Source: Girardia tigrina (lineage: Eukaryota). From it: 57,089 nucleotides of DNA. A program made the translations under genes and the position numbers. Positions within the stretch are counted from its first letter, which is position 1. Each line of letters opens with the position of its first letter. The notes beneath the pieces are model-generated. The model was not told where the DNA came from, did not search any database, and was given only the letters and a program-made list of their open reading frames with translations. Location of the stretch: positions 1 through 57,089 of the forward strand of contig MQRK01217690.1 in NCBI GenBank assembly GCA_001938485.1, read 5' to 3'. Of this stretch, positions 2,437 to 46,952 are shown piece after piece.

Positions 2437-2730
2437 TCACTTTTCCCTGTGACCGTGCCTCCTCGTTTCCATGTTCTTCTCTGAAATCTCATCTAAAGGC
2501 TCATCTCTTTCTTCCTTAAATCCCAAAATATTTGAATATCTCTCAAAGCTTATTAGGAATTCTTCTAATTTTACTTCTGACCCATCGAATGTCTCGGGTC
2601 CCTTGATAACTGGTGTCACGTGGTCGTGTGTCGCCATATTAAGAACATTTAAACAAGTCTCATTTGAATGTTTATGACAATCACAGTTAGAGTCATTATG
2701 ACTATCAGAAAGTCTTTCATCGTTTGTCAT
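2437..2730 (-). pseudogene. Gag N-terminus including a 31-aa extension encoded inside the LTR; internal gag deletion follows
   Basis: ORF starts in the LTR and reads through ATG-GCG at the LTR/PBS junction into PETFDGSEVKLEEFL; near-identical to the gag at 8340-8672. Confidence 0.75.
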
Positions 2731-3120
2731 CCTTCTAATTGGCTTTCTTAATTCTGTTTTTAATCATGATTATTCGAACAATTTTTCTAAATTATTTTTA
2801 AAAATATTTAACCTCTAAAAATATTAATTAAAAAATAATAAGTTTTACCATTTCTCAACAAATCTTAAAATAATAAAAATGTCATCAAATTATTAAAAAT
2901 GCATTTAATTTAAATTTTACTAAAAATTATTAAACTTAATATTAATTGTGAAATTACAAATATGAACTTATGAAATGATTATTTTAATTATGTTCGAATA
3001 GTCAATCACTTTAAATTTAAATAAAAAAATACCAATTTCATCTGGGTGGGAGAATCACCATACCGCAACATACCGCATCCATACATTTACAAATTCAAAC
3101 AATGTAAAATATTCCTCACA
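2637..3120 (-). repeat. 5' LTR of Gypsy family A
   Basis: TGTGAGGAATATT start, TCTCCCACCCAGATG motif, followed by TGGCGAC; alignable to 7846-8338. Confidence 0.88.
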
Positions 3121-4471
3121 TTTTGAAAAAAATCTTACGCCCATGTAGAACTTGGTCCATTTAGGTCCTTTGATTTATCTGAGAAATGATGTGAGATAGT
3201 AGAATTGAATGGTTTCTTATGCTAACTTAAGTTATAAAATATAGATAGATGCTGTAACAATCTTCGTTTGGTTGGCAGTAAATACTTCATTAGAAATCCA
3301 GTAAACTTAGATGATGTAAGTACAATTTACCAGACTAATAAAAATATCTTCAAATACAGTCTAAAATCATATTGTCTGGGCCTCTGAAAACATAAAACAA
3401 ATTCGGCATTCTTACTACTAGTCATGAATATTCCACGTTACATGATAATTAGGATGCAATAAGACAAAACGACCGCGATTCCAATCATGCGTAGCATACT
3501 CATATGATATACACATGGGACTGCTTATCATGGAAGTGACTGTACGTCAATATATTTATAAGTATTTTGAGCCGGACACTAGAGATCATTCAGTCACATT
3601 TAAAAATAAAGAAAATAATGTCTAGACTCAACATATTTAGTCTTATTATAGGAAAAAGAAGACAATATTTAAGATTTTTTTACAAAAATTAATAGAAATT
3701 ATTCAAATTATATAAAATCTAAACGTTTTAAATAATATTTTATAGAATTTTATGTTTCTAAAAGGATCACCGGAAAAACACTGGCTTTCATATGTTTGAA
3801 CAAATATTATGAATAAATAGTGTTTTTAGAAATAAATATTATTTTATGCAAATAATAGATTTGATAATTCTCTCGGGTCAGATAATCATTGGCCCAGAAA
3901 TCATTAGATTAATTAATTTGTGGAGTTAATTAATATTATTTTTAACAATTAATTTTTAATATTTAAACCTAAAATATTGAAAATATTTATATCTAATAGA
4001 AGGTCCATAAAATTCAGATTAAATTCAAATTAAATTTAAGAAAATATAAAATTATATATTATAAAAACGATAATTTTTAACAATTCTTATTGGTATCAAA
4101 CACAATAAGGACAAAAGAAACTTTTTTCCGCAAAAATAAACAAATTATCTGAGAAATTATCAAAAAATAAATAATTGGTTACTGGCAAATAAGGTAAAAC
4201 AACAAAAAATGATAAATAAAATAAATTATCAAATTATAATATAATGTTATAAAATGATATTAACGTTGGATGTATCAAATATAATAACACTAAGCGGCAT
4301 TTATTGAAGATCTATTCATGCTTCCAAAGATAATATTTTGATTCTAGAAGTTATTTTATACTTTTAACAAATGAAATTACTCTTCGTCTGAAAATAATTA
4401 CAAAAAAGTATTTAATTAAAAAGCGATTACATAAATCGTGTTGTGCATTTTACTGATTTAGTTATTGTGTC

Positions 4472-4909
4472 TGTGAGGAATATTTGGAATGTTTGATGTT
4501 TTGTGTTTGAATGTTGTATGTTGATTTGGAAATGTGTCTCTCCTATCCAGATGGATGATTAATATTTAAGTTCATATTATCTAAAAATATGTAATGTTTA
4601 CATTTATTTTTAATTCCAAATAATTTTGAAATTTTAAATAAGTTAATTAATCTTTACAATTTTTAATAAATAAATCAAATTAATATTTTTAATTAATTAT
4701 TATAATTAATAATCATTTTAATTATTATTCAATAAGTTTTAAGTAAATACTTTAATAAAAGATTTATTTCTCCATTTGCTAAAAAAATAAGAAGAATTAA
4801 TTCATTAATCGATTTAGTTTAGAATGCAATCGCTTTGACAAAGATTGTCTTATGGGCAATTCTATGGAAAATTCTAAATTATTGTAAAATCATGTGAATG
4901 TGCTTTATA
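4472..4909 (+). repeat. solo LTR, TGTGAGG group
   Basis: Same start and CTCTCCTATCCAGATGG motif; terminal region homologous to copies at 6435 and 46509. Confidence 0.8.
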
Positions 4910-5344
4910 AATATTTTTCAGAATATAATACTTTAATATTATAGTGCATATTTTCCGTTTTAATAATTAAATACATAGGATTAAACTTAAAAAAACTCTC
5001 GAGTATTATTAAATAACTGAAAATTACTAAAACGTCCCTAAAACTTGGTGAAATATTGAGAAACAATTAAAATTATTACTTTAAATTATTTATTAAAACT
5101 CTATAAAAATTCTTTCTACAAATCTATTAACTCTACAAATGAATTTAGTCAAAAGAACATACAACCTCTGTTCATCAATTATTATATGTATTCTAAGGAA
5201 TAATTTAATTTAACTGTATTTACAAAACTATGAAAAATGTTTTATTTATATAATATTTATATTGTACTCTTAGTATCAAAGTTCAAAGCTTTCTTTACTT
5301 ATGTCTTTATAAAATTAGTCATCATAAAAATAAAAATAATATTT

Positions 5345-5345
<1 letters not shown>

Positions 5346-5388
<43 letters not shown>
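5346..5388. repeat. (AAT)n microsatellite
   Basis: Perfect trinucleotide run. Confidence 0.97.
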
Positions 5389-7210: not shown

Positions 7211-7599
7211 AGTTAATGGTTTTTCTTTATCATTTTTAATCGGTTTATTAATTAATTTAACAATTGTTTCATTGGTCAAATTTAAAAAAATGATTAGTAA
7301 TAACCATTTTTAATATTTTTATATCATTAATAATCATTTTAATTTTTACCCAATATAATTTTGAATAAATATTTGAACAATTTTTATAATTCTCCATTTG
7401 CTCAGATAATAAGATTAGTATCATTAATTAGTTAGACGGATGCAATCATACATAAGCTTTGACAAAGATTGTCCTGAAGATAATCAAACTTGTTGTAATA
7501 ATAAAAATATTAAAAATCATATTGGTGTTCTTAAAACTGTTATAATCTCCTATTAAAAATTTTTAAATCACTTTCAAATATATTTAAAATATTTTAATT

Positions 7600-7800
7600 A
7601 AAATATATTTATATATTTATTAATTAAAATAAATTAATTTAACTTTAAAGTTGTTATTTACATTTTAAATTGTATAAATAATCCGACAGTTTTAAACATT
7701 TAAAATATCAATCTTCCATCTTCGTGGGAGAAACATAATCCTAAAAACAACATAAAATAAAGACAAACAAAATAAACAAATAAAATAAACAGGTATAAAC
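7600..7800 (-). repeat. LTR fragment of the TGTGAGG group; boundaries approximate
   Basis: Minus strand TCTCCCACGAAGATGG preceded by a TG-rich tract. Confidence 0.5.
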
Positions 7801-7845
7801 TATAATACTTTAATGGAACTTTTGAAAACATTGGCTAAATATGTA

Positions 7846-9180
7846 TGTGAGGAATATTTTAAATTGTTTGAATGTGTAAACGTATGGATGCTGTATGTTG
7901 ATTTAAGTATGTTGAATTTAGAATGGTGATTCTCCCACCCAGATGGAAATTGGTATTTTTTATTTAAATTTAAGGTGATTGACTATTCGAACATAATTAA
8001 AATAATTATTTTATAAGTTCATATCTTTAATTTCAGAATTAAAATTAAGTTTAATATTTTTTGGTAAAATTTAAATTAAATGTATTTTTAATAATTTGAT
8101 GACATTTTTATTATTTTGGGATTTATTGAGAAATGGTAAAATTTATTATTTTTAAATAATATTAATTAATATATTTAAAAAAGACTTAGAACAATTGTTC
8201 GAATAATCATGATTAAAAGAAAAATAAGAAAACCAATTAGAATGATGACAAACGATGAAAGACTTTCTGATAGTCATAATGACTCTAAATGTGATTGTAA
8301 GAAAAAGTCTAATGAGACTTGTCTAAATGTTCTTAATAGGTGACACACGACCACGTGACACCAGTTATCAAGGGACCAGAGACATTCGATGGGTCAGAAG
8401 TAAAATTAGAAGAATTCCTAATAAGCTTTGAGAGATGTTCAAAGATTTTGGGATTTAAGGAAGAAAGAAAAGCAATATTAGTTAGAGCATTCATGACCCC
8501 AGAAGCGATAAACAAATATGAGAAGACACAAGGAGGCAGCTGGGAAATAAGAATGAAAAGTGCATTCTCGAAAGAGAAAAATATTTTAGAGATAATGAAA
8601 GAGCTTGTAGAGATTAGAATCGGGGATAAAAATCCAACAGAAGTATTTAAAAAGATTGATGAACTAGATTGATGAAAAGATTGGAAAAACTAGTTGAGAA
8701 AAAACTAGGAAAAAAGGAACTTTCAGATCTAGCGTACGCCAATGCCATCGAAGATAGAGAAGTAAGAAGAAAAATGACTCTGAGAAATGCCACAAAAGCA
8801 GAAGATATAAAAAATATCCAGGAAAAAATTTACGAATTTGAGCTGAAAGACAGGAATATAAGAGTGGACGCGTACACGACAAAGGAAAATAAAGAATGAA
8901 AGAAAGTAGAATATAGAACAAGAAGACCGAGACCAGGATACGAAGAGAGAAAGATCGAAGAACCAAGAAGAAATTTTAATGCGAGAAGGATCATATGTCG
9001 GGCCTGCCATGAAGAAGGACATGTGAGACGGGAATGCCCAAATGTTAAATGTAATCATTGTAATAAGAAAGGGCATGTAAGAACACAATGTTATGAGAAT
9101 CCAAACAGATTTAGAGATCGCGAACAATCTGGAAGAGAAGATAAAAGGAATAGAAGAAAGGAACGAAAAGAATACACAAA
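7846..9180 (+). mobile_element. Gypsy family A second copy: LTR (7846-8338) plus frameshifted gag, 3' truncated
   Basis: LTR alignable to 3120-2637; gag with tandem CCHC knuckles (CRACHEEGHVRREC, CNHCNKKGHVRTQC). Confidence 0.9.
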
Positions 9181-16067: not shown

Positions 16068-19000
16068 TGTTCGAGTCAAATCAATGAAACGAATTAATTA
16101 TTCAAAGCAATTAGTCAAAAAAAATTTGATTTAATTTTTTTTGATTTGATTTTAAAGAAAAACATTATTAAAAAAAAACATTTATTTGAGAAAATTAATT
16201 AATTTGAATTGAAAAGAATATAATAATTTATTCTGTTGTTTTAATAAATCAATTTTGAAGGTCGTTGATAATAAACATTGAAAAATAAAAGAATTTGATT
16301 GAATATCTAATTGATTTTTTTGTCTATTTCCTTTGAATTTAAAAATCTTCGGATCTAAATAAAATAATTAAAAGGAAATGAAAGTAAACAATTACAAGTC
16401 AACATTTAGTAGCAGATCGTGTTTGAACTTAAATGGGAATCGTCAGCAATTGATTTCGGATGATCGATCGAGAGTATCACCGAACGATTCCTCTTCTGGC
16501 GACTATGTGGAAGATTTGGTGAATTGTTCTTTCCTTGATCGTCTGGGAAGTAAGTCATGTTTTGGCGCTGAAGATCGGCTGTCGATGATGCTTAGTGAGA
16601 GTTGCCGCGATTTATGGACAGACGGAAAGGAAAATAATCGATTTGAAATGGAAGAAATTAAATTAATATTTGTGGATTTCGTTAATAGAGTCGATTCTTT
16701 TAAATGTAATTTGCAATGGGATTACAACGATTGCGTAGCAAGTCTAGCTAATTTAACTGAATCACTAGGAATTCCTTCTAAAAAAATAAATTCGATTTTT
16801 TTTGAAAGTGAGAGAGATTTTCGTGAGATTTATTAAAAAAGGCGATAACGATTATTATAAAACTGGAATCGAGTATAGAAAAGAACTTAATCAAATATCC
16901 AATGATTCAAACCAACTGAAATTGAAAATTACGAGTCTAAACAACTTAACAAATATTACAAGTTTAATTGCCGAAATAAGTAATCAAATAATGAATACAA
17001 ATCTCAAACACTCCCACCAGCTGACCTGATTTAAGCTGACGAGTTTTAAGGACGTTATAGAACAACAAAAGGAATGTAAAAGTGCAATTCTCGAGGGCAG
17101 TTTTGAGAATCTCTTTACAGAATATTCGAATTTTGTGAAGGGTGTAGTTGGCAGCGAAGATCTCAATTGGCCGGAAGATGAGGATGATAAGAAAAAGTTT
17201 GAAGGAAAAGACACAGAATTACAGATATTCATAAAAAACGCTTTTTGTGAAAACAATTGCCTTCGATTTAAAAAATCGAGAAACGATAAAACACATCAAA
17301 GCAAAAATTGAAAACAAGGAGAAAATTCCAGTCAGCTTACAACAATTAATGGTTTGATTGATTACTATTAGAAGATCACAAAATAATAAAGTAAAGTGAT
17401 ATAGCTAAGAATGCTACACTTCATCTTCTGCAATACGCCAATTTAACGAGAGAAATAAATGGGTCCTTTCCAGTGAGGGTAAATAATTTAAAGGACCTTG
17501 AATGTTTCGTAGGATTGTTGGAAGCTATTATTTCTAGATCAGAGAATAATAACAAGGAAGTGGAGATTGAAGGAGGATTATTATACATCACATTGACGGC
17601 AAAATTACCCGAAGTTCTCGTCGAGCGTCGGAAGAGAACTCGCCTTTCTGAAGGAAAACCTCAGAAATTATCAGTTTTAAAGGATTGGCTAATAAATGAG
17701 GTGGAAATAAAGCGGACCGCTGCGGAAGCCGTTCATGGTATCAGCACATTCAATCCCAAACAGCGCTACTTGGTACAAAGCATCAGATTTTAAGCACATT
17801 GACCAAGGTTTACGACCCGATTGGTTTCCTAACAGTATATACTGTATAATGCCGGGGAAAATATTAATACTAAAAATCTGGATGAATGACACCGTTTGGG
17901 ACGTTGAAATTTCAGAACCGTTAAAAATATGAGCCCAGAATTGGGTTGAACTACAAAAGAATCTAGATAAAATTAGTGTCAAAAGAATTTCAATTGAAAA
18001 AGGAGGAAAAATTCAAATCCATGTCTTTTTTGATGCTTCTAAGGATGCTTACGGAGTTAGTTACATCAGAGAGATTGATAAGAATGATGATAACACCAAT
18101 ATATAACACCAAGTATGTCCAACGAAAATAGTTTCGATTCCACCATTGGAATTAATGGCTGCGGTAGTCGGAGTAAAGTTGGAGAGAAAATTAGTCAGCG
18201 CCTTGGGTATAACCATGGATGAAATCCTTTTTTGGACTGACAGCATGGATGTATTGTATTGCATAACAAGATACGGGAAAAAGTTTAGTACATTTATTGC
18301 TAATCGAATTGGTTATATTCAGGAATTTACAAGAGGGAATCAATAGAGATCCGTGCCATCAAAAGAAAATCCGGTCGATATTCTTTCTAGAGGAACAACT
18401 TTCAGAAATGCAAAAATGGTGAAAGAGCCCGAAAATCCTTCAACTTCAGGAAGAAGATTGACCAGAATGACTAAAAGAGTTAAAAACTGAAGTGTGGTTA
18501 GAGAAAAAGGGTGTTGTCTTGAGCACAGTGCATATCGGTGAGAAAAATAATTCCGAGAATTCCGTGGCTAATAATCATCATTCGAAATAGAGAAAATAAG
18601 TCTTGAAAAGAATATCCGAGACACATATGATAGATAGAGTTAAAAAAGTTGAAAATGATCATAAAGAAAGTGAGTTTGAATTAGCAGAAAAAGAAATAAT
18701 AATGGAAGATCAACAGGAATGGTTTAAATCGCAGATACAATTAATTAAGGCATGAAAAACACTTAAAGTAAAGGATTCAATATTAAAAGCAAATCCTATG
18801 ATTGTAGAAGACGGACTGTTGAGAAGCAACAGTAGGATAGTGAAATCTGAGTACCTTCCTTGGAGTTTACGATATCCGATAATACTGTCTAATAAAAGTC
18901 CAATAGCGAAATTGATAGTGGAACATGTTCATCAAGAATATCTTCACTGTGCTGGCATTAATCAACAGTATTATAAATTATCCGAAAGATTTTGGTTCCC

Positions 19001-20608
19001 AAAAATGTGTAAATTTGTAAAAGGATATCAAAAGTTTTGCAAGATCTGTTCGAGAGATCAGCCAAAGGAATGACTCAGATAATGGGTGATATACCGGAAT
19101 TTCGCCTTCGAGAGCCGTTAAGGGCATTTAATAAAATCGGAATTGATTATGCAGGTCCAATATACACTAAACAAGGACGAGGAAGAGCGAAAGAAAAAAG
19201 ATATATCTGATTGATCATTTGTCTCCAAAGTAGGGAAATTCATATTGAATTGGCTAAAGGGTTAGATACTGATGATCATAGGAGAGCTTTAAAAAGATCT
19301 ATTTCCAAAAGAGGGAGACCATCGATGATAATTTCGGATAACAGTGGAAACTTCCGAGGAATAAATGGCGAAATTGTAGAGATTAAACAAGATACTTACA
19401 AGGCCCTAAATGTATTAAATGATGGAGAAATTAGATGGATCTTTAATCCTCCGGAGGCACCCCATTTTGAAGGAATTTTTGAGTTTATGGTGAAATCAAT
19501 CAAAATTGCGCTATTCACCATCCTCGGTACGGCTGAAGTTACAGATGAGAAATTGGAAACAATCTCATAGAAATAGAGGGGATCGTTAATTCTAGACCGT
19601 TGACGAGATCCATGGAAGATCCTAGAGACAATCTGATACTTACGCCAAATCATTTTATCATTGCTGATTATCAAGGAGAATGTGATTTTATGATGACTGG
19701 ATCAGAAAAAAGAAATGTAAATTCCAGATGGAAGCACGTGCAGTATCTCACTATTCAATTTTTGAATAGATGGAAAAAGGAATTAATCATCGAATGGAGG
19801 AACAGAAATAAATGGTTAAAAGAAAATCGAGATCTGAAAGAGAGAGATTTGGTATGGGTTTTAGAGTCAGATGATGGTCGAAGGAATTGGCCTATGGAGA
19901 GAGAGTAGATATTAGAGAGAGTAATATTGGGTACTGAAGAAAAATGTAGAGTAGTGGATGTCAAATTGGATGGAGTTGTAAATAGACGAGCAATCAAGAA
20001 GGTATGTAAAATTGACGATGAGAAACAAATTCCTTGTGAAGAGACTATGCCGATCCAAGAGAATAGTGATGCTGATACGAGTGATGTCGATAACTTTAGT
20101 GGTCAATGCGAGGAGAGTGTGAGTGTTCGAGGCGACTTGAGTGCGAGTGGTTGTTCCGAGGATGGTATGGAAGGATGCGGCGAGGAGGACACTGTCGGGA
20201 CGAGCGAGGAGATGGCGAGCTTAGAGGAACTACGAGATCGGCCTACACTGGAAAATCACTTCGGTTCATGGGGGGAGAATATGTTCGACTAAAATCGATG
20301 AACCGAATTGATTTTTCAAAGAAATTATTCAAAAAAATTTTGATTTAATTTGTTGTGTAAAAAGAAAATCATTATCGTAAAATAACATTTATTTTAGAAA
20401 ATTAATTAATTTGAATTGAAAAGAATATAATAATTTATTCTGCTGTTTTAATTAATCAATTTTGAAGGTTGTTGATAATAAACATTGGAAAATAAAAGAA
20501 TTTGATCGAATATCTAATTGATTTTTTGTCTATTTCCTTTGAATTTAAAAATCTTCGGATTTAAATAGAATAATTAAAAAAATGACTTTAAACAATTACA
20601 AATCAGCA
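16068..20608 (+). mobile_element. BEL/Pao LTR retrotransposon, two LTRs, internally deleted and decayed
   Basis: LTRs 16068-16404 and 20282-20608 (TG...CA), exact TSD CCGAG, PPT GGGGGAGAA; HVFFDASKDAYG, ELMAAVVG, FWTDSMD, GIDYAGP, WIFNPPEAPHFEGIFE and LTPNHF motifs. Confidence 0.95.
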
Positions 20609-23249: not shown

Positions 23250-24060
23250 ATTTTAAAATCATTTTCTCCGATTTTCTTTTTACATTTTAAATTATGTTCG
23301 GCAATATTGCTCCCATTATCCAACCGACTATGCTCTTTGATCCGTTTGCAGAGATGACGAGATGTCTCTCCAATGTATGTGGCGTTACACCCATTACATG
23401 TATATTTATAAACAAGATCGGAGCACAAACCGAGAGGAGTGGGAGATTTATTACTGAGGGAGATTTATCGATTCCTTATTCAGATGGTTTTAAACATTTA
23501 AAATCATCAATTTTGAAAAGTTTGATCCCAAATACCATGAATCTAAAAATTATTTCCCAATCATATAAAATTCGTGATATGCTCAGTAATAAATCTCCCA
23601 CTTCTCTCGGTTTGTGCTCCGATCTTGTTTATAAATGTACATGTAATGGGTGTAACGCCACATACATTGGAGAGACTGCTCGTCATCTCTGCAAACGGAT
23701 CAAAGAGCATAGTCGGTTGGATAATGGGAGCAATATTGCCGAACATAATTTAAAATGTAAAAAGAAAATCGGAGAAAATGATTTTAAAATTCTGTGTAAT
23801 CGATTTAAAAATTACTGGGAGAGAGTAACGTGTGAGGCCTTATTAATAAGATCCATGGATCCAAAAATTAATATCAAAGCTTCACACTCAACTTCTCTGT
23901 TAAACATTTTCAAATAGAGCCTTTATTACACGATTGATTGCATAATCACCTTTTTCATATATAAGCTGCAAAAAGCCAGTGTTAATTTAGTCTGAAAATG
24001 GCGGGTAATCCGCCGAAATTAATTACGAAAATAAATTGTGAAAAATGGCGTTCACTTTTT
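23250..24060 (+). mobile_element. Penelope-like element, 5' truncated with an inverted 5' segment
   Basis: GIY-YIG domain LVYKCTCNGCNATYIGETARHLCKRIKEH ending at 23917; 23250-23458 is an inverted copy of 23582-23790; hammerhead and AATAAA downstream. Confidence 0.92.
23986..24030 (+). ncRNA. minimal type I hammerhead motif, G8A core variant
   Basis: tttagt-CTGAAAA-t-ggcgg(gtaat)ccgcc-GAAA-ttaa-TT-acgaaa; palindromic stem III region AATTAATT. Confidence 0.72.
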
Positions 24061-24540: not shown

Positions 24541-25701
24541 TTTTTCGGACACTCAAAAAATAGATGATATTTTTCTTACTTGAAAACGAATGTAATTTTT
24601 TAAATATTCAATCTGAAATATAATATTTAACAGGAATGTTTTATCTGAATAACTTGTAATCCGAAAAAATCATTTGCAATTTTCTGCATATTATATCCGG
24701 ATTTGTATGGTAAATTAGAGAAGCATTTTAAAATTACTTAAAATATTTGTTTGTAATAAATTATTTTATTCGTTGATTTAAATAAGAATAGCAAATTTAA
24801 AATTTATGACTTTCTGTTAAAGTTTTAAAAGTTGTTGTGTTCTTTTGCATTGCTCGGTCTGATTCATGAAGAGTCTAGCTTTCAAAGTCAGTGAAATTAT
24901 TAGCAAAACTGATAAAAAAATCCATTAAATATCAAGAAAAATATAGTTTGACAATTTATAATGAAAATTTTCAATTCAATTTTTACAATTAATGAAAATT
25001 TTCAATTCAGTAGAAAAACCGTATATTTCGATGAAAAAGATGATCTTTTATCTCTAAAATATATCGCAGAATTAAGAGTTCAATTTTTGTTACTGATAGA
25101 TAAGGAGATCCTCTTTATAAGAACTTAAAATAATATAAATATTTTGTCAAATTGTAATAAATGAAATTAATTTTAAATTTCATTATATTTAACTTCCCAG
25201 ACACATATATTATAATTGTTGTGAAAGAGAATATCCAACTAGGAAAAATATATTTGAATTAACAATTTACAATAATGATTATTAAAACAACACACACATT
25301 AAAATACATTAACATTTACATAATTATTCCATACTCACCCTGTTCGATAACTTAATTTCTGTATCTTTTAGGCTTCAGTCGGTCTCGAACTGGATTGCGT
25401 CTCACTCTTGTTTCATTAATATTCCGTCGATCTTCCTCTGGCGTCTGGTCTTCTTCATGTACATCATTTTTGATCATTTTTGATACTTTTTGACATAATT
25501 GTTGTAGCCTTTTCTGATTTTCTCGTGTCATTTTGTGGTGTTCTCAATCTTTTGATATCCATCACATTTCTCTCAATTATTCTTCCACCACTAATCCTTT
25601 TTAATCTGTACGCATGCTTCCCATGTTACCGATCACCGCATATGGCCCTTCGTATCTCGGCATATCGATTCCTTTGATTCGCGGTAGTATTCTAGCCAGC
25701 A

Positions 25702-26726
25702 TTAGATCACCAATTGCCAGAAAACCCCAGAACCTGATGTAGCTGGCTTTTTAATTTCTTGTTTGAACTTGATATGTTGGCTCACCACTTGTAATACTTG
25801 TTGAAGCTCTGTGATATATTTGCAATAGTTTCCATCATTTGCTGGACTCACTTTCTTTTCCGAGTAGAAAATCCTCATTTTCCGACCAAAAATCACCTCG
25901 AAGGGAGAGAATCCAGTGCTTCTATAAATTGTATTTCTTAATCCAATTTCAACAAAGGAGATCGCCTCTTCCCATTTATATCCAGATGACTTCGCTGTTG
26001 CATAAAGCATGTCTTTTGCTGTACCAAATAGTCTCTCAATTACCCCGTCACCTTGAGGATAATATTGTGAGCTCCGAGATTTTCTAATTCCGAGAAGAGC
26101 ACAAAGTTCCTGTACGATCTCGCTCTCAAAAGCAGTCCCTCCATCTGAGTGTATCCTGTCTGGGATTCCAAATTGCACGATTCACTTGTCAAATATGGAT
26201 TTGCATATCGTTTTCGCAGTCATATTTCTCAGCGGTATCAGCATGGGGTATTTTGAAAAGTTATCAATAATTCCCAAGATGTATCTACATCAATTTTTAC
26301 TTTCTGGAAGTGTCCTGTTACATCAATAGATATTGTTCCAAAGGGGTACCCTGCATTTAAGGATCCATGAGCCTTATTTCTGTCTGGTCGTTGATTTTTT
26401 CGGCTCTGACATTCTTTACTTTTTCCTATTCTTATTCTAACATCAAAAAACATACCTGGCCAGTAGAATTTATCCTTTAAAAGAGCTGTTGTTTTGCTGA
26501 CTCCGATGTGTCCATGCAACATATGGGCATGGCCGATGATTTCATCTCTTCTATTTTTTGGTAAAAGAAGTTTATAGTCCACTTTGCGAATAATATATAG
26601 CAAGTCTCCTCTAAATCGCAAGTCCTTCCGATTTCTCCATAGCACCTGGGCTTCTCTTTCTGCATTCTGAAGTTCTCCAGGATATTGATCTTCAACGTAT
26701 TTGTTTTTCATAAGTTTAATTATCAA
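25702..26726 (-). pseudogene. Gypsy integrase (split over two ORFs)
   Basis: HMLHGHIG, FYWPGM, ISIDVTG, IHSDGGTAF, YYPQGDGVIER, TGFSPFEVIFGR. Confidence 0.92.
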
Positions 26727-26765
26727 AACCAGATTATTATCATCCGTCTGACAGACCTCTTCTTC

Positions 26766-27478
26766 TTACATTTCTATCCAACGGCAGTAGACAACAGCTT
26801 TTTTATCATTTTGATTTTCATTGTAATATTTAACATTTCGTTTTGCCTTCCGATTTTCGTGGCTCATTGCACATTGCTGGCATTGCTCTGGCGCTCGGGA
26901 TAGAGCCTCCGCATTCTTATGTTCTTCTCCTTTTCGGTGTTGGATATCCATATCAAAGACACTCAATTCATTGAGCCATGAACTAAATTGACTTGTACTC
27001 GGTGTTTTCCTATTCATCATCCAGCATAGAGCTTTGTGGTCAGTTCTTATACTAAATCTTCTTCNNNNNNNNNNNNNNNNNNNNNNNNTTGTGTATTTAT
27101 AGACACTCAGTAACTCTTTTCGTGTCACACAATAATGTTGTTCTGCTGTAGACAACTTATGCGAAGCGTAGGCTATTACTTTTTCATCACCACTTTGCAC
27201 TTGAGAAAGGACGCATCCAATCGTGTTATTACATGCATCCGTATCCAAAATGAATTGGTCGTAGCTATTCGGAACTGCTAAATTGGCGCAGTCATTAAAC
27301 ATTGTTTCAAATGAAGAAATGCGTCACCCAAACAGGCTGACCATTGCAACGGGTGTAATTTTCTAGTCCTAGCTTTGTTCCAACAGTCTTTACATGTGTC
27401 TTCTAATGGTGCAACAATTTTGGCGTACTCTTTAATATAATTGCGATAGTATCCGCAAAGTCCATGAAATTTTTTCAT
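26766..27478 (-). pseudogene. Gypsy RNase H region
   Basis: FILDTDAC, YCVTRKELL, RTDHKAL, NAEALSR. Confidence 0.9.
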
Positions 27479-27505
27479 TTCTTCTTGAGACTCTGGCTGT
27501 GGCCA

Positions 27506-28402
27506 CTAATGGATGTACTTGATTTTATCATCGTCCATTGAAATTCCATTGGCTGATACTCTATGGCCAAGGTACTTTACATCCCTTGCAAAAAATTGGC
27601 ACTTTGCTGGTTCAATCTTTAGACCGGCTTCTTTGATTTTGGATAATACTTTTCGCAGTCTGACAAAATGCTCCTCTTGTGTCTTCTCAAAAACTATAAT
27701 ATCATCCAAATATATTAAGCATTCCTTCCAGTCTTCTTCCTTTAATATCGCTTTCATAACTCTTTGGAACGTTACCGGCGCTGCCGCTAAGCCCATTGGC
27801 AACCTCAAAAACTCCCAATGTCCTTTTCTAGTACTAAACGCTGTTTTCTTTCTAACACACTCTGCAAGACTTATGTTATAATATCCTGCAGCCAAATCAA
27901 TTGTACAAAAGTGTTTCGCTCCTCCAAAGGTATCAAAATGTTGTTGTGCGTCAGGAATTGGAAATGATGGAACTTTAGTCTTTTGATTTAGTCTCCGATA
28001 ATCTACTGTAAGTCGAATATATCCGTCCTTTTTTGGCACAATGACTATAGGAGCGTTCCACTGTGATAGACCTGGTTGAATAATATTTTTCTGTAGCAAC
28101 TGTTCAACAAACTCATCCACTTTTTCTTGGAGCGCCACCGGAATTCTCCTTGTTTGCTCCTGTATCGGGCCATTATCTTTAAGCTCTATTTTATGCTCAG
28201 CGTTCCGCGCCAAGCCTATATCATATTTAGACCAACTAAATACGTCTCTGAATTCTTTCACTAAACTAATAATATTGTCTCTATTGGTATCATTCACACA
28301 TCTAAATTGGGATAAGAGACACTCACTTTCAGGCGCTTCTCGTGTAACGGAAGCTGTTACAGTCTGAGTCTTATAGGGCGCATACTGCTTCCGACTCCTC
28401 AA
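27506..28402 (-). pseudogene. Gypsy reverse transcriptase
   Basis: SQWNAPIVIVPKKDG, VDYRRLN, YLDDIIV, YLGHRVS. Confidence 0.95.
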
Positions 28403-28413
28403 ACAGTGCCCTT

Positions 28414-29904
28414 TCAGTTTAACTGATTTGTCGGGACTGTCGTATCTGCATTCATCTTCGAAACGAATGGAACGAAAATTGTTCTACTATTAACACCATT
28501 ATTATCGAGATTAATCTTAAACCCAAGACTCTTCATGCTCCGTTTCCAAAGAATTATATCCGGGCTCAATCCATCCACAACAAAGAAATTGCAACTTTTC
28601 CATTTAGTACCCAATTCAACTACCAGGGATACTTCCGCTCGTACAGGCACTGTAAATCCATCTGCACACTTGATTTTTCTGGATGAACGTCTGGTTTTCA
28701 ATGTTTTATCTGAATCTTGCAACTCCATTAGCATGTTTTGCTGATAGCATTCACTTCGGCTCCGGTGTCTAATATGATCTTTTTACTGTTCCCATTGATC
28801 CGACCGTAACACATTGGTTTGTTCTGATCTTTTACTTTATAACTGCTCTTCTTTACTCGAAGATTATTCTGTTCCTTTTGTTTCGGAACTGTTTCTTTCA
28901 CCGCTCTGGCATATGACTTCTTTGCATTTGAAATATGACAAATGCTCGGTTCTTCCGTACCTGTTCCCGTGTCTGTTTCACTTTCATTACTGGATATACT
29001 GGCAGACTCGACCACATGGACATATTTACGTTTTCCGTTTAGACAAAACTTATCTATATGCCCCTTTTTGTTGCATTTTTTGCAAAATCGAGACTTTTTA
29101 CAGCCTCTCAAAATGTGACTGCTGCTCCCACAATTCCAGCATCCACTTGTTTCTTTGACAGGATTTCTCATTCTATTATCGCTTTTCCATAGACTCGATT
29201 GTCTTTCTTGCTGCAGCCCTTTTAACGTTTCCTGCAATGAGGTAATACGTTTGTTCAGTTCTGAAATTTCATCCCGGAGCATTCGAATTTCATCATTCTC
29301 GACCAGCACATATACTGTTGCCGACATCTCCTGAGTTACACGTTCTTTTTTATCATCTCGAATGCTTCATCCAAAGTTTTAGGCTGCAACACTTTTAGTG
29401 CTTTTTGAGCTCTGTCATTCATTAAACCATTTATAAAAACTTGGAGAGTTTTTGGCTCTCTTTCTTCGGAGATCAACTCCGATAATTCTTTAAAACAACG
29501 AATTCTTAATTCTTTCATAAAGTCCTTCGTTGACTGGCCATCCTTCTGTCGAATGCCGAATAGTTTCATCCACGATGAAATATCTAACTTCTTTCGTCTG
29601 AACAGCTTCAAAAAAAGTTTCCTTGAGCCATTCGAAACTCTTTTGGTTTTGGGTGTAACCCTACTGCGACTTCAGAAAACACTGAACATCTTCCTCCAAG
29701 TATTCCATGAAGAAGTCAGCTTGTGTTTCCTCCGATATTTCAAGTTGCCGAAAAATACATCCATGTATTTCAAAAATTGGGTAGCATCGTCCCGTTTTCG
29801 AATGTTTTCGGAGTTTTAGCGGAGTCCTTTTTCCGGATTCTATTCAAAATTACTTCTAGTAATTTCGACTGGTGATCTCCACTATCGGCTTTGATCCTGC
29901 TCAT
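28414..29904 (-). pseudogene. Gypsy gag and aspartic protease (frameshifted)
   Basis: CWNCGSSSHILRGC, CKKCNKKGHIDKFC, ILDTGAEVNAIS; ATG at 29904 inside the PBS-like tract. Confidence 0.88.
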
Positions 29905-30199
29905 GACGCCACTGTTGTGAAAGAGAATATCCAACTAAGAAAAATATATTTGAATTAACAATTTACAATAAGGATTATTAAAACAACACACACATTAAAA
30001 TACATTAATCTTTGCATAATTATTCCACAATAACAATTATACTTTAAAATTTTCTATACATATAGAAATATATTTTATTTATAATATTTAAATTTCATTA
30101 GTTTATTTTATATCCCTTTAAATATTTATCTTTTTTTAAAAAAAATATTAAATTTAATTTTAATTATTAATTTTAAAACTTTTAACTTATCAGATTATT

Positions 30200-30346
30200 A
30201 TCGTTTCGTTATTATTATTTTAACTCTGTAAAATACAAAAAAAATACCAATTTCCATCTGGGTGGGAGAATCACCATTCTAAGTTCAACATACCAGAATC
30301 AACATACAGAATTTATACATTTATACAATTTAAAATATGCCTCAAC
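30200..30346 (-). repeat. LTR fragment of Gypsy family A
   Basis: AAAATACCAATTTCCATCTGGGTGGGAGAATCACCA near-identical to 3026-3060. Confidence 0.8.
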
Positions 30347-34958: not shown

Positions 34959-35339
34959 TACATTTACAAACAAATTTCTATATATTAAAGATTAATTGAA
35001 AAAAAATGGATATTCATGTTGTAAGGGAAAATTCGGAATGTTGTGAGCTTGATGTTTGTATTTTGTTTAGATTGGTGAATCTCAGACTCAGATGGGATGA
35101 TGTGTTATTGAATAATTATTTAAATCTAATGAGATTAATTTTATAAGATTAATGTTTAAATGCTAATTAATTAAAAAGTTTTATAATTATAAATTCTAAT
35201 AATATTTTTAGTTAAACGATTTTAACTTATTGAATTTAATATAATTTAAAAACTATTATTATTATTTATTTTAAAATTTACTTATTACATTTTTATCCAA
35301 AAAAAATTTAGAAATCAAAGCCTAATATTATTTTATCTC

Positions 35340-38300
35340 TGTGAGGTGTAGTTACATAATCAACCATTTAAAATATGATGTTTGGTGTGTTATGTGTGTT
35401 TGTGAGTTTGATTGACATATGACATAATAATCTCGAATCTTGAATCATTACATCATTGCTAATCCCCATATATAAAGAATGTTGTATGATTTATTCATAG
35501 AATTTTATAACCCAACTTATTTGAATAACACGACTTATAAATAATAACATGGCGACCACGCTGAATACTAGCGAACTTATTCGCATCATTCCACAGCCGA
35601 GAACACTTACTGGTGAGATAGACATTGAAGATTTTCTCACAGAAATGAAGAACTATTTTGATTTAAATCAAATAAGAATGGATCAACGGAATATTTTAAT
35701 CAGAGCCTTTATGGATGCATGAAGAAATTTGAGAAGAATACAGACCCTGAAAACTACGAAGAAAAACTTCGAAAGTTATTCAAAAGTCAACAAATTTAGC
35801 GGAAGACTTGCAGAATGCGTTGTCATATCGGAAAGGATCAGCATCAATTGAAGAATATATTCAACAAGTTGAAAAAAAATGTCGAGAAAATAATGAAACA
35901 TAAGCTAACGTAAACTAAACTAACTACATTTTTGCTTAAATATTGTTTGGATAATGAGAAAATGAAAGACGAAATCACTCGGTTTGAATATACAGAATCA
36001 TTGCTAAAATTAAAAGCCGGGAAAGAAAATATAGAAAATGAAGAACAGAATGGACCAACTCCGACCAAGTATATTAAAGAAATTTTGAAAACAGTGGAAG
36101 CTCGGTCGAAACAGGAAGAGGTATTTTTAATAAATAAGCCAACTTATGCAGCGATAGTGAACAAAAACTATCAAAGCAGTCAACAATTTAATGATAGACA
36201 ACGCAATGAGAATATCAGACCAAGAAATATATCTTATCCCAATAAGAACGGAGGAAATTTAAATTCGGAAACGGAGCCTCGAGTGACAAACATCTCTCAA
36301 TGCTGTGTGAGGAATATTTGGTGTGTGTATGTTTTTGTGTAGTTTTTGCATGTTCAAATGTTGTATGTTGATTTGGGATTGTGCCTCTCCTAACCAGATG
36401 GATTATCAATATTTAATTTTTTANNNNNNNNNNNNNNNNNNNNNNNNNNNNNNNNNNNNNNNNNNNNNNNNNNAATTTTTAGTTTTTATTATTGTACTTT
36501 TTAAATAATTTTAATGATTTTATTTTTGTAAATTTTTAAATAATTAAAATCAAATTAATGTTTAAAAATGACTATAAAAATATTTTATTTCAACCAATCA
36601 AAAATTTAAATTAAATATTTTTTAAATAAAATAATCTTATCAAGTATAGTTCAGATTATAATAGGAGATATTGAAAATTGATTGATGGATCTAAGTGAAA
36701 GCATTACTGTTGATCATCATAAAGATGATAAAAATTGTGAATGTAATAAATGTTCTGTCAAATGTGTGAGTTCTCTTACAACTATGCATGTCAAGAAATG
36801 AGTATTATTCGTCGACAGTGTCCTAATATACAATGTTCTCATTGCCGGGGACAAAGTTATTTAAAAAGACAGTGTTTTCAAAGGCGGAGAGACAACGAGA
36901 GAGGAAACAGTGGAGACTATCGTAATAATACTTTCAGGAGAAATTCGAACTAAAACCAGCCTAATTACTATGCCCGGAGAAAGCCAGAATACTACAATCA
37001 AATAGCTGCTATGGGTTATGAAGACAACCAGAAACCAGATTACTGCGATCGTGAGACAAGTGGTGAAGACTGCCGAAGACAATCAGGAACCGAGATACGA
37101 GCGGAAAATGGGGGTGCTTCGAACATAGGGGAAATGCTCGGGGTGATACAAACGCAGTAAGTAATGATGTATTTGATTCGAGATTTTTGAGATTAGAATG
37201 TGATAGTATGAATGAATGTTATGATGAGAATGATTGTAATTTTGTCGATAAGTATGATGTTTGCATGAATGTTGAAAAGGATAACAATTTTTTCGATAAG
37301 TTTAATGTTCTTTTGAATGATGAAAGAGATGAAAAAAATAATAGAATATGAAATATGTGCGAATTATTTTAATAGAAATGAATTACTAAATAAAGATTAT
37401 TTTATTAATAATGATAATAAATACTTTAAAAATAAAGACTTTATAAGGGAGTGTATAAAGATAGATAAATCAAAAATAATACTGGACAAAAACTAGATAA
37501 GTGACCATTTGATAACGTGATTCTGAATAGCAAATATTTCTACTGTTTATTTGATACGGGTGCTAAAATTAGTGTCATTAGTATGGGGGTACCTCGAAAA
37601 TGTGAAGGGAAATTAGAGAATGACAATAAGTTATTGAAAATTTCATGTGCAAATGGAACCGTGTTAGAAATATTAGGATATTGTGAATTAGAAATAGGAT
37701 ATAAAGAGAAGAATATTAAAAATATTTTCTTTGTTGCTGTTGACATTATTCCCGAAGTAATAATCGGAGTAGATATTTTAGATAAATAATTTGAAACAGC
37801 ACAGTTTCAAAATTGGATAAACTTTTTAAGTAGTCTGAATATCAAATTAGAATATAGGAAAGGGGACAAACATGGCAACGCAGACGCACTATCCCGAATG
37901 AACACCGAACAATGTAAGCAGTGTAATTTAAACCATAAGGATGCAAAAACAGTGAAGTGTCAGACAGACTCCTTACGATGAATCAAGAAAACTTAATTAC
38001 AGAGTTACAACAGAATAGCGCTGAAATTGATGAGATACTAACACGAATTCAAAACAAAGAAGAACACGAGTTTGTTTTCAAAGATGGACTGATAATGAAA
38101 AATAATAAAATATTTGTTCTAAAAGAAAAACAGAAAGATTTCATTACTTTATACCATAAAATATTGTGCCATGCTGGATGTCAAAAAGTGTACAAATTTT
38201 TGTACAACAATTATATTATGAATAAATTTGAATAAACAGTAAAAGATACTATTAAAAGGTGTGTAATTTGTCAAAAAGGGAAAGTTTTCACACAGAAAAC

Positions 38301-39267
38301 CAAAGAAATTAACTATAAATTAACAGCTACAGAACAATTTGAATCAGTATATATAGATTTTTGTGGACCTTTGAAATCCACACTGTCGGGAAAAAATATA
38401 TCATGGCTATTATCGACCAATTTAGTAAATATGTGGTATTAAAAGCGGTTAATAACCAAGACAAGAAAATATTAGTTAAAATATTGACAGAACATTAGAT
38501 ATTGAAGTTTGGCAGTCCAAAAATTGTGCATGTTGATAATGGTAAATCATTTTTGTCATCAATGTTTACAAATTTAGGAAATAAATATAACTTCATCATA
38601 CAATACTCGAGCCCATACCACCATCAAGCCAACGGACAAGTAGAAAGACAATTTCGAACAATTCGAGACTGGATATTTTGCTGTGTAGAAGATAAGTTAT
38701 TTAGAGACTGGGAAGAGTGTTTACCCTACATTGAATTTACAATGAACGCAACAGCTCAAAAAACATTAATGTTAAGCCCCTCGGAGATTATTGATCGATT
38801 TGAGTTTTTTTAAGCAAGATGATGCAATAATGAGGGCGAAAAACAAATATATCAAATCAATAAAAATAAATCAGGAAAACAATAAGAATGTGAAAACGGA
38901 TAGACAATTTAATGTTGGAGATTTAGTAAATGTGAAAAATGATAATAGGAAAAAAACAGGAAAAGCGTCATGACGGTCCTTATACAATAATAACTAAACT
39001 TCATGATAGGAGCTATATATTAAAAAAAATATGATGGATCAGAAATTATCAGAAACGTGGAATGGCTTGCGCCATATTGGACGAGGGAGATGTGAGGTGT
39101 AGTTAAATAATCAACAATTTAAAATATGATGCTTGGTGTGTTTGTGAGTTTGATTGACATATGACATAATATATCTCGAATCATTACATCATTGCCAATC
39201 CCCATATATGTTGTATGATTTATTAATAGAATTTGTTAACCCGACTTATGACTTATAAATAATAACA
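35340..39267 (+). mobile_element. Ty3/Gypsy element (family B), two LTRs, lacking RT and most of RNase H
   Basis: LTRs 35340-35549 and 39091-39267, exact TSD ATCTC, PBS-like TGGCGACC, PPT GACGAGGGAGA; gag, LFDTGAKISVI protease, integrase (YIDFCGP, VHVDNG, YHHQANGQVER). Confidence 0.93.
36306..36780 (+). repeat. solo LTR (TGTGAGG group) inserted in the gag zinc knuckle; contains a gap
   Basis: TGTGAGGAATATT...CTTACA; removing it rejoins QC-YACQEM. Confidence 0.82.
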
Positions 39268-40431
39268 ATCTCAATAATTAAATCAAAAATTTGAATATAG
39301 ATACAAAAATATAAAAATCAAGAACGATTCTTTCCTCGGATTTTGCAATTGAAATTGAGTCTGTTTGTGTTGTTAATAAATATTTTCAAGCAAATTGTGA
39401 TGTTACTAATACGTAAATCTCTAAATCAAATATAAATAAATTATGACATATCAGCTTAAGTTCCTCAAATCTAGTGTCAAAATCCATTATCAAGACTTAA
39501 ATAACACCCGGTATATATAGTATTGCATATAAAGTATTGCACTGAAAAGTCAACTCTAAAACTAATTAGCTTCATTAACTGAAAATGTAATCGCATTTAA
39601 TCAAATTCCAGATATGACAGACATATTTATCAAAATTACAGAAAAAAATACTTATCAAAAATATAAATAATGTAAATCAATATGTTTAAAACTTGAATAG
39701 TTGCTTGTATGAAGAGATCGTTACGGTTATTACTAATATTCTTCCAATTTTTGATACGAAAATATAAAATTAAAAAGAAAGCTCGATTTTCATTTTAATC
39801 TGTAATTTTTAAATTTTATATTTTGCAATATAATAACCAAAAACTATTTTATAAAAAATACAGAAACGCACTTATAATACTGATAAAAAAATAATAAATA
39901 TATTTATATTGAATTAATTTATTATTCATTTTAAATTACATTTTTGTTAATATTTGTTGTGTACTTTTATTATTCTTGTATTATTTCATGACACTGAAAC
40001 ACAACTAATAAAGTGTTTGTTATAATTTTGAGAAATACGATTGGTTAAAATAATATTAATACCCAATCAGTTTAATTGAATATTTTATTTAAAGATACTT
40101 TTATCAAAAATATTTTATTGTAATGTGTTAGAACTTTTTTTAATGTTTTTTCTGTATATTGAAGACAAATTCATAACTTCTTATGTTTTGGATTATTAAG
40201 TAAGGTAATAATTCTATTCGTTTATGATTAGACATAATTAATTATATTTTAATATTGTTTTAAACTTATTATTCATTTTATTTTAAATATTATATATAAT
40301 AAAATATTTTACTAATGAACATTTTAGTATTTTTTTAAAGTGCTAAATATAAATTTAAACGTAGTAAAATGTCAAACAAAGTAAAAAATTTTATCATTTA
40401 TGTAAAATAAATAATAATAATTTAGTTTATA

Positions 40432-44178: not shown

Positions 44179-45112
44179 TGTTAGCAACATGACAATTTGC
44201 GTGAAAACATTCATTAACAACACAAAAGGACGCATTTTTACAACAATTATTAGTAACGCTTTCTTTAGTAAGCATCTTTTGCAATGGAGATATATTTTGT
44301 ATATTTATTCTAATCTTGATTAAAGAAAAAATTAAAAAGTTAATAATCTTTAATTTCTCAAAATTTTATGGGGTAAAAATATATAAAGTAAATTTTAAAA
44401 TAAACAATAGCTTTTTTAATTACAGTCTACTTCGGCTAATTCGAACCACCAGCTAAACCGAACAAAGAAAAAATCTCTTAATTTTTCTAATATACTTAGC
44501 GCTGGCTAAACCGAAAAACAGACAAAACCGAAAACCGAAAGACTTTATGAGAATGGGCGCAATAGATACCTTGTACTTTTATTCTTCTATTCCGAACAGT
44601 ATAATAATTGCATAATATATATTGCTTACTTTAAATCATTACTTTTTAAGTATTTTTCAAGTCAATAGTCATTTTTTTTATTTCTAATAAACATGCATAA
44701 AAAATTTGGTACTAAACTTACTTTTTTATTATGGGGAGCAACCTTTGTTAAGTCTATTAGGCCAATTTTTATGTCAATTCGAACAGTTATTCGGATTACT
44801 CGATTTCCGGCTAAACCCAACGTTTTTTGTGCATTTTGGGTGTTCGGATTACCTGGAGCAGAATGTATATTAAATGTAAGAATTTAAATTATTTACTGAA
44901 AATTATTATTAAAATTTCAAATTGAAAAACCTTTAATTAATAATTTTATTTATTTTTAGTATTTATTTAATGTATTTATTATTTATTTATAGTATTTAAA
45001 GATTAATCTCATTAGACTTAAATAATTAATCAATAACATATCAATCCCATCTGAGTAAGATCTAAACATCATACAAAGAACAAACTCACAACATTCACAA
45101 TTTACTCTCACA
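44179..45112 (-). repeat. solo LTR (TGTGAGAG variant) interrupted by a MITE
   Basis: TG...CA ends, flanks GTTAT/TTTAT, ACTCAGATGGGAT motif, homologous to 35020/39411. Confidence 0.78.
44423..44865. mobile_element. pogo/Tigger-type MITE
   Basis: TA|CAGTCTACTTCGGCTAATTCGAAC ... GTTCGGATTACCTGGAGCAGAATG|TA, with subterminal CCGAA/TTCGG repeats. Confidence 0.7.
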
Positions 45113-45779
45113 TTTATCAAGGTTGATAAATAATCATTTTAAAACGAATATTATTAATTCAAATTAAATCAGTCGCGTTCGTACTTTTCAAAAGGTAACA
45201 ACGAAAGTCGGTTTCAATCTCTAGAGATACCGTTCCATTTCTCCTAAACTGAAGTGAACATTTACAATTTCTGATTAATCTCAATTAATTCCAAGTTGAT
45301 TGTTTAATAGTTCACAGTAGTTTTAGTATATTTATCAATCAATATCTAATTTCTCTATCTAATATACAATACTCCACCAATATATTTACTCAGTACATTC
45401 GAAAATTTAATTATGCTCTAAATCCAGATTTATTTTTTCCGATAACTTTATCTATCTGGAATCGTTATTCTTATTTATTAAACGTATATTCACTAGTCAT
45501 CTAACTAAAAAAAAGAACCATTTATTTGGACCAAACTTATGCTGTTGGTGGACAGTTATTCCGATTGTACTATTCAAAAATTTAAAATTTTATTAAAATC
45601 TTTCTCCGTGTCTCACTTTCTTGTTGTAGTGTTATCTATTCTTCTGATTTTTTATCTTAGTTAATTATATTATATTTATTACTTCAAAATTCTTAGTTTA
45701 TTTAATTATTTATATTATTAAAAGGAACCTTTTAAATCACTGTTTTGATTTATCAGGTCTCTTTATATTTTTAGTCTCA

Positions 45780-46250
45780 TTATAGTTAAATCAAAACATC
45801 TTTAGACAATTAAAAAAATATACTAAAATTAAAACTGAAGCAGGAAATGGATGGAAAGAAAAAAATAAATCAACTCATATTCTTATGTAAGCTCTGTTTA
45901 TCCAAACTTAGTTTTATTTCATAATCATCAAAATAAATTTTTATTTCCTTGAAACTATTCATACCTTGCATTTTGGTACAAAAAAACATCATATTTTTCA
46001 AAGATCTACTAAAAAAGGTACAAGATTGTTATATAAGGTAACAAGAATGTCACAGAAAGCATATTTTGCCTATTCATAAATAGGCAAAATCCAATTTTTG
46101 GAAAGATCCCTTTAGATATAGCATCTCCAGTTATAATAAAATATGTAATCTTAAAATAACAAGGTGAAAAGGAACTGTTATTATGTTTTCCTAAAAGGAA
46201 AATAGCCCAATAACTCTAATTCATAACAATGCGCATCTTTCATAAACCTT
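45780..46250 (+). pseudogene. very decayed integrase-like remnant
   Basis: ETIHTLHFGTKK and downstream QECH- and LDIA-like pieces. Confidence 0.3.
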
Positions 46251-46508
46251 TTATATGCTACTTTCAACTTCTTTGGAAGAATGATGTTTTCTTTTCTTCA
46301 AATGTATATTCATTCCTTCTAATCTTTTCTGACTAATGTGTTTAATTTTCAACTTTCTGCAGAATGTTAACTGCAAATTCTATTTCTTTGACTTAACATT
46401 AAGTTTAATTATTGCAGAATTTGAATTTTATATTTCAAAAGGCTGGTTAGAAATATTGAGAATTATTGATCTTGAATATTTGTTGTTGAACAGAAGCGAT
46501 ACACATGT

Positions 46509-46952
46509 TGTGAGGAATATTTTGATTGGTTGATGTTTTGTGTTTAAATGTTGTGTGTTGATTTGGGATTGTGCCTCTCCTACTCAGACGGATGATTAAT
46601 ATTTTAATTCCTATAATCTGAAATTATGTAATGTTTATATTTATTTCTAATTTAAAATAATTTCGAATTTTTTTAATAAGTTTTAACATTTTATTTACTT
46701 TTAATCTTTAAATAATACAATTGAATTATTTTTTTTCAATAATTAATAATCATTTTAATTTTTAACTAATAAAATTTTGAATAAGTATTTTAACAATTTA
46801 TGTAAATCTCAATTTGCTCAGATTATAAGATTAAAGTCATTAATTAGTTAGACGGATGCAATTGTGCGAAAGTTTTGACAAAGAATGTTCTGAGAACAAT
46901 CAAACTTGTAATATTAATAAAAATATTAAGTCATGTTGGTGTTCTTCTTACA
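46509..46952 (+). repeat. solo LTR, TGTGAGG group
   Basis: TGTGAGGAATATT...CTTACA; CTCTCCTACTCAGACGG motif. Confidence 0.85.

Follow-up and report, generated by a model that had tools for sequence, protein, structure and literature searches.

A putative Gag leader encoded at the end of the long terminal repeat in Ty3/gypsy elements of Girardia tigrina

We analyzed a 57,089-nt stretch of Girardia tigrina DNA (contig MQRK01217690.1, here called the window), one of the 255,254 contigs of a 1.43-Gb genome. The window has a GC content of 28% and is crowded with decayed transposons, among them Ty3/gypsy elements whose long terminal repeats (LTRs) end in a short frame in phase with gag. Comparison of these ends across the genome and among related proteins leads us to consider it probable, at roughly 0.8, that Gag is translated from an ATG inside the 5′ LTR and carries a short N-terminal extension, which we call the leader. 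A preliminary description of the window had proposed an LTR-encoded, gag-phased leader kept by selection. Our results agree that selection acts on the frame rather than on residue identity, and depart from this description on length; the eight stretches that it quoted are present and correctly translated.

The gag frame at the LTR end

Families A to D were defined by genome searches with the LTR tails of the window, using the 40 best of 732–1,860 candidates per query and 30 loci each. Family A includes the copies at 8242 and 2637, B those at 7440, 46856 and 4823, C that at 36685, and D those at 44179 and 39315. Each flagged stretch is the 3′ end of an LTR of 430–500 nt that starts with TGTGAGG and ends in TA or CA. 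In 5′ copies, the primer binding site (PBS; TGGCGAC) and then gag directly follow the LTR end. Target duplications of 5 bp in solo copies support these ends (11 of the 15 family-C LTRs that have both ends). The PBS is of tRNA-Arg type, with 20 genomic matches to the complementary tRNA 3′ end, and one of three tested loci was identified as tRNA-Arg by ARAGORN. A polypurine tract and CCHC knuckles are also present. The pol of the window element matches Pfam RVT_1 (E 2.4e-32) and RT_RNaseH_2 (E 9.4e-31), with reverse transcriptase (RT) preceding RNase H (1524–295, minus strand), and at one further locus (L397) RT is followed by frames that look integrase-like by motif reading. A Pfam search of the query Gag assigned no family. 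The folds nearest to the modeled Gag are the dArc1, PNMA2 and Ty3 capsids (best E 5.5e-3, none reaching E 0.001), and capsid-type calls came from an atlas (Retrotrans_gag, 0.93) and from PF00098 in two of five relatives. By sequence, then, these are tRNA-Arg-type Ty3/gypsy LTR retrotransposons, as judged by RT and RNase H, capsid-type Gag, LTRs, target duplication and PBS.

The open frame was scored on copies chosen by searching the genome with gag bodies alone and then reading upstream, in five families (B, F, G, D′ and C). Removal of N-containing, too short or duplicate loci left 150 scorable 5′ LTRs out of 170. An ATG at the family position followed by an open gag-phase frame is found in 98 of them (B 17/26, F 10/22, G 20/28, D′ 37/47, C 14/27), compared with 0 of 27 in family E, a leaderless control. 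The gag frame is open in 114 of the 150 and the other two frames in 10 and 0. Family A (23/28) stands outside these totals because its query included the leader. The preliminary description had called for shuffled controls, and these are open in 4–12% per lineage, whereas all eight lineage representatives are open, which are related and hence not independent. Five unbroken public gag proteins, 54–94% identical to the query, all bear a leader of 31–32 residues.

The leader-bearing lineages form one branch against E and E2 (support 100/100) while their gag has diverged to 49–86% identity, which indicates one origin for the leader and its maintenance during gag divergence. Leader lengths by lineage are 97, 94, 88, 85, 79, 76 and 67 nt, all of the form 3n + 1, and a family-C subtype carries a compensated +1/−1 change beside the ATG, both in genome copies and in all four sequencing runs compared. 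Of 167 codons, 98 have T at the third position, compared with 41 at the first and 27 at the second, the lineages being related; the low value at the second suggests that hydrophobic residues are avoided. No codon periodicity is detected in the 90 nt upstream of the leader (p 0.95) or in E/E2 (p 0.81). Frameshifts common to at least two copies number 0 in the leader and 11 in the 60 nt upstream, against 16 and 32 private ones (Fisher p 0.026; 20 of 138 copies were left out as truncated). An earlier count that included family A gave 10 shared frameshifts upstream and again none in the leader.

These lengths bear on the claim of a selected, fixed distance of 97 nt. Such a distance is indeed present at 7440 and 8242 on the plus strand and at 44275 on the minus strand. 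The near copies are as given, at 94 nt (2730, minus strand) and 96 nt (36685), the latter in a family whose norm is 97 (29/29 other loci aligned). The copy at 46856 matches a 95-nt out-of-frame variant instead: an end at 46950 (duplication 4/5 bases) fits better than one at 46952 (3/5), so the last codons of its quoted frame are probably frame-shifted. Of two decayed versions, one lies at 4823–4909 as reported, with its ATG at 4824 and a broken frame; the other, placed at 39315–39411, starts at 39327 and is of the 85-nt type. In family A, most copies start at −94, which is commoner than −97 (25 vs 15 of 30). The LTR ends had been called poorly alignable, but the tails align gap-free from the LTR end, with nucleotide identity of 35–77% per codon position and amino acid identity of 19–45%. 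Because these tails are homologous and lie on one branch, the shared length is largely inheritance, and a fixed length does not hold across the 67–97 nt seen in this genome and the 3–38 residues seen in relatives.

The proposal that the spare A of the LTR and the TG of the PBS create an in-frame gag ATG is borne out at 2637 (minus strand); in the plus-strand copy ending at 8338 this junction ATG is broken. Most families of the clade here end TG..TA, and leaderless families have the junction ATG too. Because it is created by the last A of the LTR and the TG of the PBS, no separate selection is needed to explain it. In five of six representatives the LTR ATG and the junction ATG have out-of-frame ATGs between them, so that scanning ribosomes skipping the first ATG would mostly miss the second, which argues against efficient leaky scanning.

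The arrangement extends beyond these families. At E 0.001, a profile search recovered 313 proteins, of which ranks P0006–P0100 were surveyed for leaders. A junction peptide signature appears in 52, and 42 of these are extended upstream of it by 3–38 residues (median 15). The chance of an in-frame upstream ATG before a stop is about 0.25 in shuffled tails. In this genome, 7 of 13 tails picked by PBS from other families have an in-frame ATG before any stop, compared with 1 of 26 in the other frames; E2 has one at −10. In a 50-protein tree, the Cys-rich lineages (the Cys group) are separated from the rest by one weak branch (support 60), and the leaderless proteins are scattered, forcing at least four changes. 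Family I (L463–L467, L471) has a 25-residue LTR leader that starts MKTLFDFGF, with AATAAA at −28; in most copies the gag-phase frame is open further upstream.

Overlapping contigs from two metatranscriptome runs of one study cover the leader and gag start, and two further runs of uncertain type, from one sample, also hold contigs over the LTR, junction and gag. No transcript start, end or splice joint is visible in the contigs of the four runs. A scan of metagenome contigs returned 137 pattern matches, of which 0 were confirmed.

Several observations weigh against translation from the LTR ATG. Transcript ends cannot be read from the RNA contigs, which may include DNA and of which not one covers the full stretch. 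For most of the remote proteins the junction is deduced from the peptide signature, with DNA read for the relatives in this genome (P0006, P0010, P0061, P0075 and P0079 types). The upstream control for frameshifts is rich in homopolymers, which inflates its indel count. Family C has a short in-frame open reading frame that ends two codons before the leader ATG. No amino acid constraint is detected in the leader, where nonsynonymous to synonymous changes stand at 35:9 shared and 97:31 private (p 0.68); the first 50 gag codons, for comparison, give 9:25 and 118:71 (p 1e-4). In subfamily B2, moreover, 31 of 100 listed ends (155 matches) are 2 bases short (95 nt) and 4 are 1 base short. The ATG frame of the 95-nt variant stops one base before the junction ATG, and such ends are also found in front of a PBS, which implies that the leader frame is not required in cis. 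On a star-like tree of 56 rows, drawn to test for a single origin, the variant is scattered without clustering (18 changes vs 18.7 shuffled). These ends may have moved with Gag supplied in trans, may allow restart at the junction ATG, or may have arisen repeatedly. Two 95-nt LTRs on one contig, considered as a short non-autonomous element, proved to be a local duplication.

With these points in view, we favor a model in which transcription would start slightly upstream of the LTR ATG and the first ATG would serve as the main start. From there the gag frame runs stop-free over AATAAA, past the end of the LTR and over the PBS. The leader would be short and probably disordered, its bases shared with predicted poly(A) signals; its length would be inherited and altered by whole codons, and the second Met would be a by-product of the LTR end and the PBS.

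Leader composition and competing explanations

The invariant Asn-Lys of the leader is AATAAA read in frame, starting at −37 (−40 in family A) and likewise at −37 in families H and J. Of the 150 copies, 138 have AATAAA at a distance of 25–55 nt from the LTR end, and in E2, which has no long leader, it stands at −48 in 16 of 17 copies. We take it to be a poly(A) signal flanked by U/UG-rich elements, and much of the Cys content, like Asn-Lys, may come from such elements read in frame. Five lineages share one invariant Cys codon, located 9 nt ahead of AATAAA; other Cys codons vary, with 2–5 per leader. A conserved RNA fold spanning the leader and the PBS was rejected (z −1.3 to +0.45 in 7/7), and so was a TATA box for family H, which one copy has and three others lack; no TATA box common to the Cys families was found.

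The preliminary description saw the point of the leader in its Cys, His and Asn residues, as a metal-binding or lipidated segment of selected length forming an alternative Gag isoform. We think this very unlikely. Cys does make up 20 of 167 residues, each Cys-group leader has at least three Cys or His, and TG stands at codon positions 1–2 20 times against 8.8 expected (2.3-fold), so that some selection for Cys is possible. TG is, however, enriched about equally at positions 2–3 (5 vs 2.3, 2.2-fold; 1.3-fold at 3–1), E2 retains a TGTGTT run before AATAAA despite lacking the long leader, and Cys occurs at least twice in only 2 of the 42 remote leaders. A metal site with three or four ligands at conserved spacing is not seen: a single Cys column is invariant, spacing differs, four shared changes remove a Cys, and length ranges over 22–32 residues. 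The structure model is of low confidence here, with a predicted local distance difference test (pLDDT) score of 35–38 in the leader against 71–93 in the capsid.

The same nucleotide signals could mean that the stretch is untranslated, its ATG and Cys codons being promoter and poly(A) elements and transcription starting downstream or the frame being a relic. AATAAA accounts for the invariant residues, in five of six families a CAAT-type motif precedes the ATG by 12–16 nt, and the spread of the 95-nt variant and the lack of amino acid selection fit as well. Such a reading, to which we give just as little credence, leaves unexplained the gag-phase periodicity, the seven 3n + 1 lengths, the 0 versus 11 shared frameshifts and the 42 of 52 extended relatives. 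It is also improbable, if a shade less so, that the ATG is reached after cis or trans splicing to an AG a few bases upstream, in which case the leader would still be translated. Families A, B, D, F, G, H, I and J have an AG no more than 10 nt ahead of the ATG, and in B, H and I this AG follows a run of pyrimidines. One AT-rich LTR bin is also left uncovered in both metatranscriptome runs. Against this, those runs contain no splice joint, family C has no such AG, AG is common, and a gap between contigs proves nothing.

A further reading would make the leader a functional, LTR-encoded docking module, with a PIP-like, PCNA-binding motif in sister lineages that was lost or replaced in the Cys-rich ones. 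The nearest non-Cys relatives have leaders with QRQITDFF (P0007), QSKITDYF (P0009), QRLITEFI (P0008) and QTLITDHF (P0047). The form Q-x-x-I-T-D-F-F presumably matches the consensus of the PCNA-interacting protein (PIP) box, which we take to be Q-x-x-[ILM]-x-x-[FY]-[FY] and which fits P0007, P0009 and the family-H copies L474/L494 and L490. Q-x-x-I-T-D/E occurs in 4 of the 42 remote leaders, a count that 0 of 5000 shuffles attain (their mean is 0.015), and the strict pattern in 2 of 42 (2 of 5000 shuffles); the motif proteins sit on long separate branches adjoining the Cys group. In family H (nine loci), QRLITDFF is encoded in the LTR tail, with the ATG at −76, and its second Phe codon falls in the column of the invariant Cys. 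Yet the pattern was picked after inspection; only four of the nine family-H tails are readable (two with FF, one with FI and one that is degraded; their Ile and Asp codons differ synonymously); the motif bases are U-rich and could be an RNA signal; and the families with window leaders lack the motif. A complex prediction of host PCNA, entered as two exon products in separate chains, with the family-H leader scored 0.03 (mark 0.34; controls not folded), which speaks neither for nor against binding, and no full-length host PCNA protein was found at the strict cut-off of the search. We consider the docking module possible but unlikely. The broader proposal, that the repeat/unique-5′ (R/U5) end of the LTR serves the whole clade as a coding slot in which different Gag N termini with host-docking motifs can be exchanged, a PIP box in several lineages and a replacement in the Cys-rich ones, is slightly more doubtful. 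As a separate observation, the second PCNA exon is GC-rich in this AT-rich genome (L487, L488), and there are at least two PCNA-like loci.

Features of the window

Features of the LTR-encoded Gag leader and its controls in the window
Feature	Position	Strand	Basis or remark
5′ LTR, family A	2637..3120	−	TGTGAGG start at 3120; then PBS, gag
LTR-encoded Gag leader, 31 codons + 1 base (94 nt), in gag frame	2637..2730	−	reads through A + TG of PBS into gag
LTR/PBS junction; LTR last A + TG of PBS give second in-frame ATG	2625..2637	−	complementary to host tRNA 3′ end
Decayed pol (RT, RNase H) of element with 2637 leader	295..2492	−	Pfam
5′ LTR, family A; leader 8242–8338, tandem ATGs at −97 and −94	7846..8338	+	gag remnant downstream
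Leader of family-B2 LTR remnant, 97 nt, AATAAA 7500–7505	7440..7536	+	sequence reading
Solo LTR, family B2; ATG at 46856 opens the 95-nt out-of-frame variant	46509..46950	+	B2 end alignment, target duplication
Family-C LTR in gag of family-E element; leader 36685–36780 (96 nt), AATAAA 36745–36750	36306..36780	+	1 base below family norm
Leader of family-D LTR remnant, 97 nt	44179..44275	−	sequence reading
Decayed family-B LTR; leader ATG 4824, frame broken	4472..4909	+	sequence reading
Decayed 85-nt D-type leader, frame open, no ATG	39327..39411	+	sequence reading
Control: family-E 5′ LTR (35340–35549) + PBS, junction ATG, no LTR leader	35340..35561	+	sequence reading

The insertions at 35020–39411 are nested, a family-E element (35340–39267, duplication ATCTC) splitting a D-type LTR and itself holding the family-C LTR within its gag. 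Leaders of family C contain a splice-donor-like GTGAGT about 16 nt before the LTR end (36765–36772; L062), by which young solo LTRs could splice promoter and leader into host exons; no joint from it appears in the RNA contigs examined. A second, unrelated Ty3/gypsy element (25217–30344, minus strand) lacks a leader ATG, and its LTR end and PBS are separated by a spacer; the start of its 5′ LTR resembles that of family A (88% over 94 nt), and it is possibly a chimera. The start of the pol frame before protease (2115–2492, minus strand; about 37170–37330, plus strand; L392, L395) is rich in Cys, Asp and Glu and has TGTATG-type repeats, whether or not the family bears a leader; TG is similarly abundant in the opening 100 nt of the LTR.

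Elsewhere in the window, a Tigger/pogo-like transposase remnant, as we take it to be (47936–48409, minus strand), ends in the PIP-like QLKLTDFF. An intronless 533-codon frame with leucine-rich repeats (52706–54307, plus strand; Pfam LRR_8, E 2.2e-13) is likely a host membrane protein gene. A remnant that motif reading labels BEL/Pao-like, with paired LTRs, lies at 16068–20608 (plus strand), and a 209-nt inverted repeat at 23250–23790 falls within a Penelope-like endonuclease remnant.

Comparison with known systems

Annotation pipelines seek gag between LTRs, and the Gag N termini of this clade would consequently be called 3–38 residues short. With a poly(A)-type signal, an integration end, a primer site and a protein overlapping in about 100 bases, the stretch offers a clean case of dual coding, for which lineages that differ in leader length or have no leader are natural controls. 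If the PIP-like motif binds PCNA, a testable link would join a Ty3/gypsy capsid protein to the replication fork; if the docking slot is real, Gag or the incoming particle would be tied to the replicating DNA of dividing cells, and every solo LTR would bear promoter, start codon and motif together.

PIP boxes are carried by LINE-1 ORF2p and pogo-type transposases, with which the motif here shares Q-x-x-hydrophobic-x-x-aromatic-aromatic; in this clade it is on Gag, LTR-encoded and predicted only. The glyco-Gag of murine leukaemia virus, a minor membrane isoform, is an N-terminally extended Gag from an upstream in-frame CUG outside the LTR. Both have an extension from an upstream in-frame start, but here the start is an LTR ATG, the leader is hydrophilic and the ATG is probably the main start. 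In Saccharomyces Ty1, a Ty1/copia element, the LTR holds a leader of about 13 codons. The likeness is an open gag-phase frame from an ATG in the 5′ LTR (98 of 150 copies here), whereas the elements described here are Ty3/gypsy, have a tRNA-Arg-type PBS and a second in-frame ATG at the LTR/PBS junction, and have a leader that spans AATAAA and varies from 3 to 38 residues by lineage. With other Ty3/gypsy (Metaviridae) elements that use a tRNA-Arg primer they share the RT–RNase H–integrase order, an Arc/Ty3-like capsid fold, CCHC knuckles, the 5-bp target duplication and the polypurine tract. Their PBS lies inside gag, unlike that of Ty3, part of which adjoins the 5′ untranslated region according to a passage of PMC4974528; the same source places the PBS of Ty1 in GAG.

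The preliminary description regarded the arrangement as undescribed. That view does not extend to Ty1, whose gag is stated to begin in the 5′ LTR in a passage of PMC3522557. It does fit this clade, for whose leader no description was found in the open literature (Repbase/Dfam and subscription papers lay outside the search); the passages seen of PMC12801592, PMC4202319, PMC11410931, PMC7175516, PMC3681743, PMC5408680, PMC3061985 and PMC9503155 do not describe it. The LTR-encoded Gag N terminus is a variant of the Ty1 arrangement in Ty3/gypsy elements, wider and more variable than first described.

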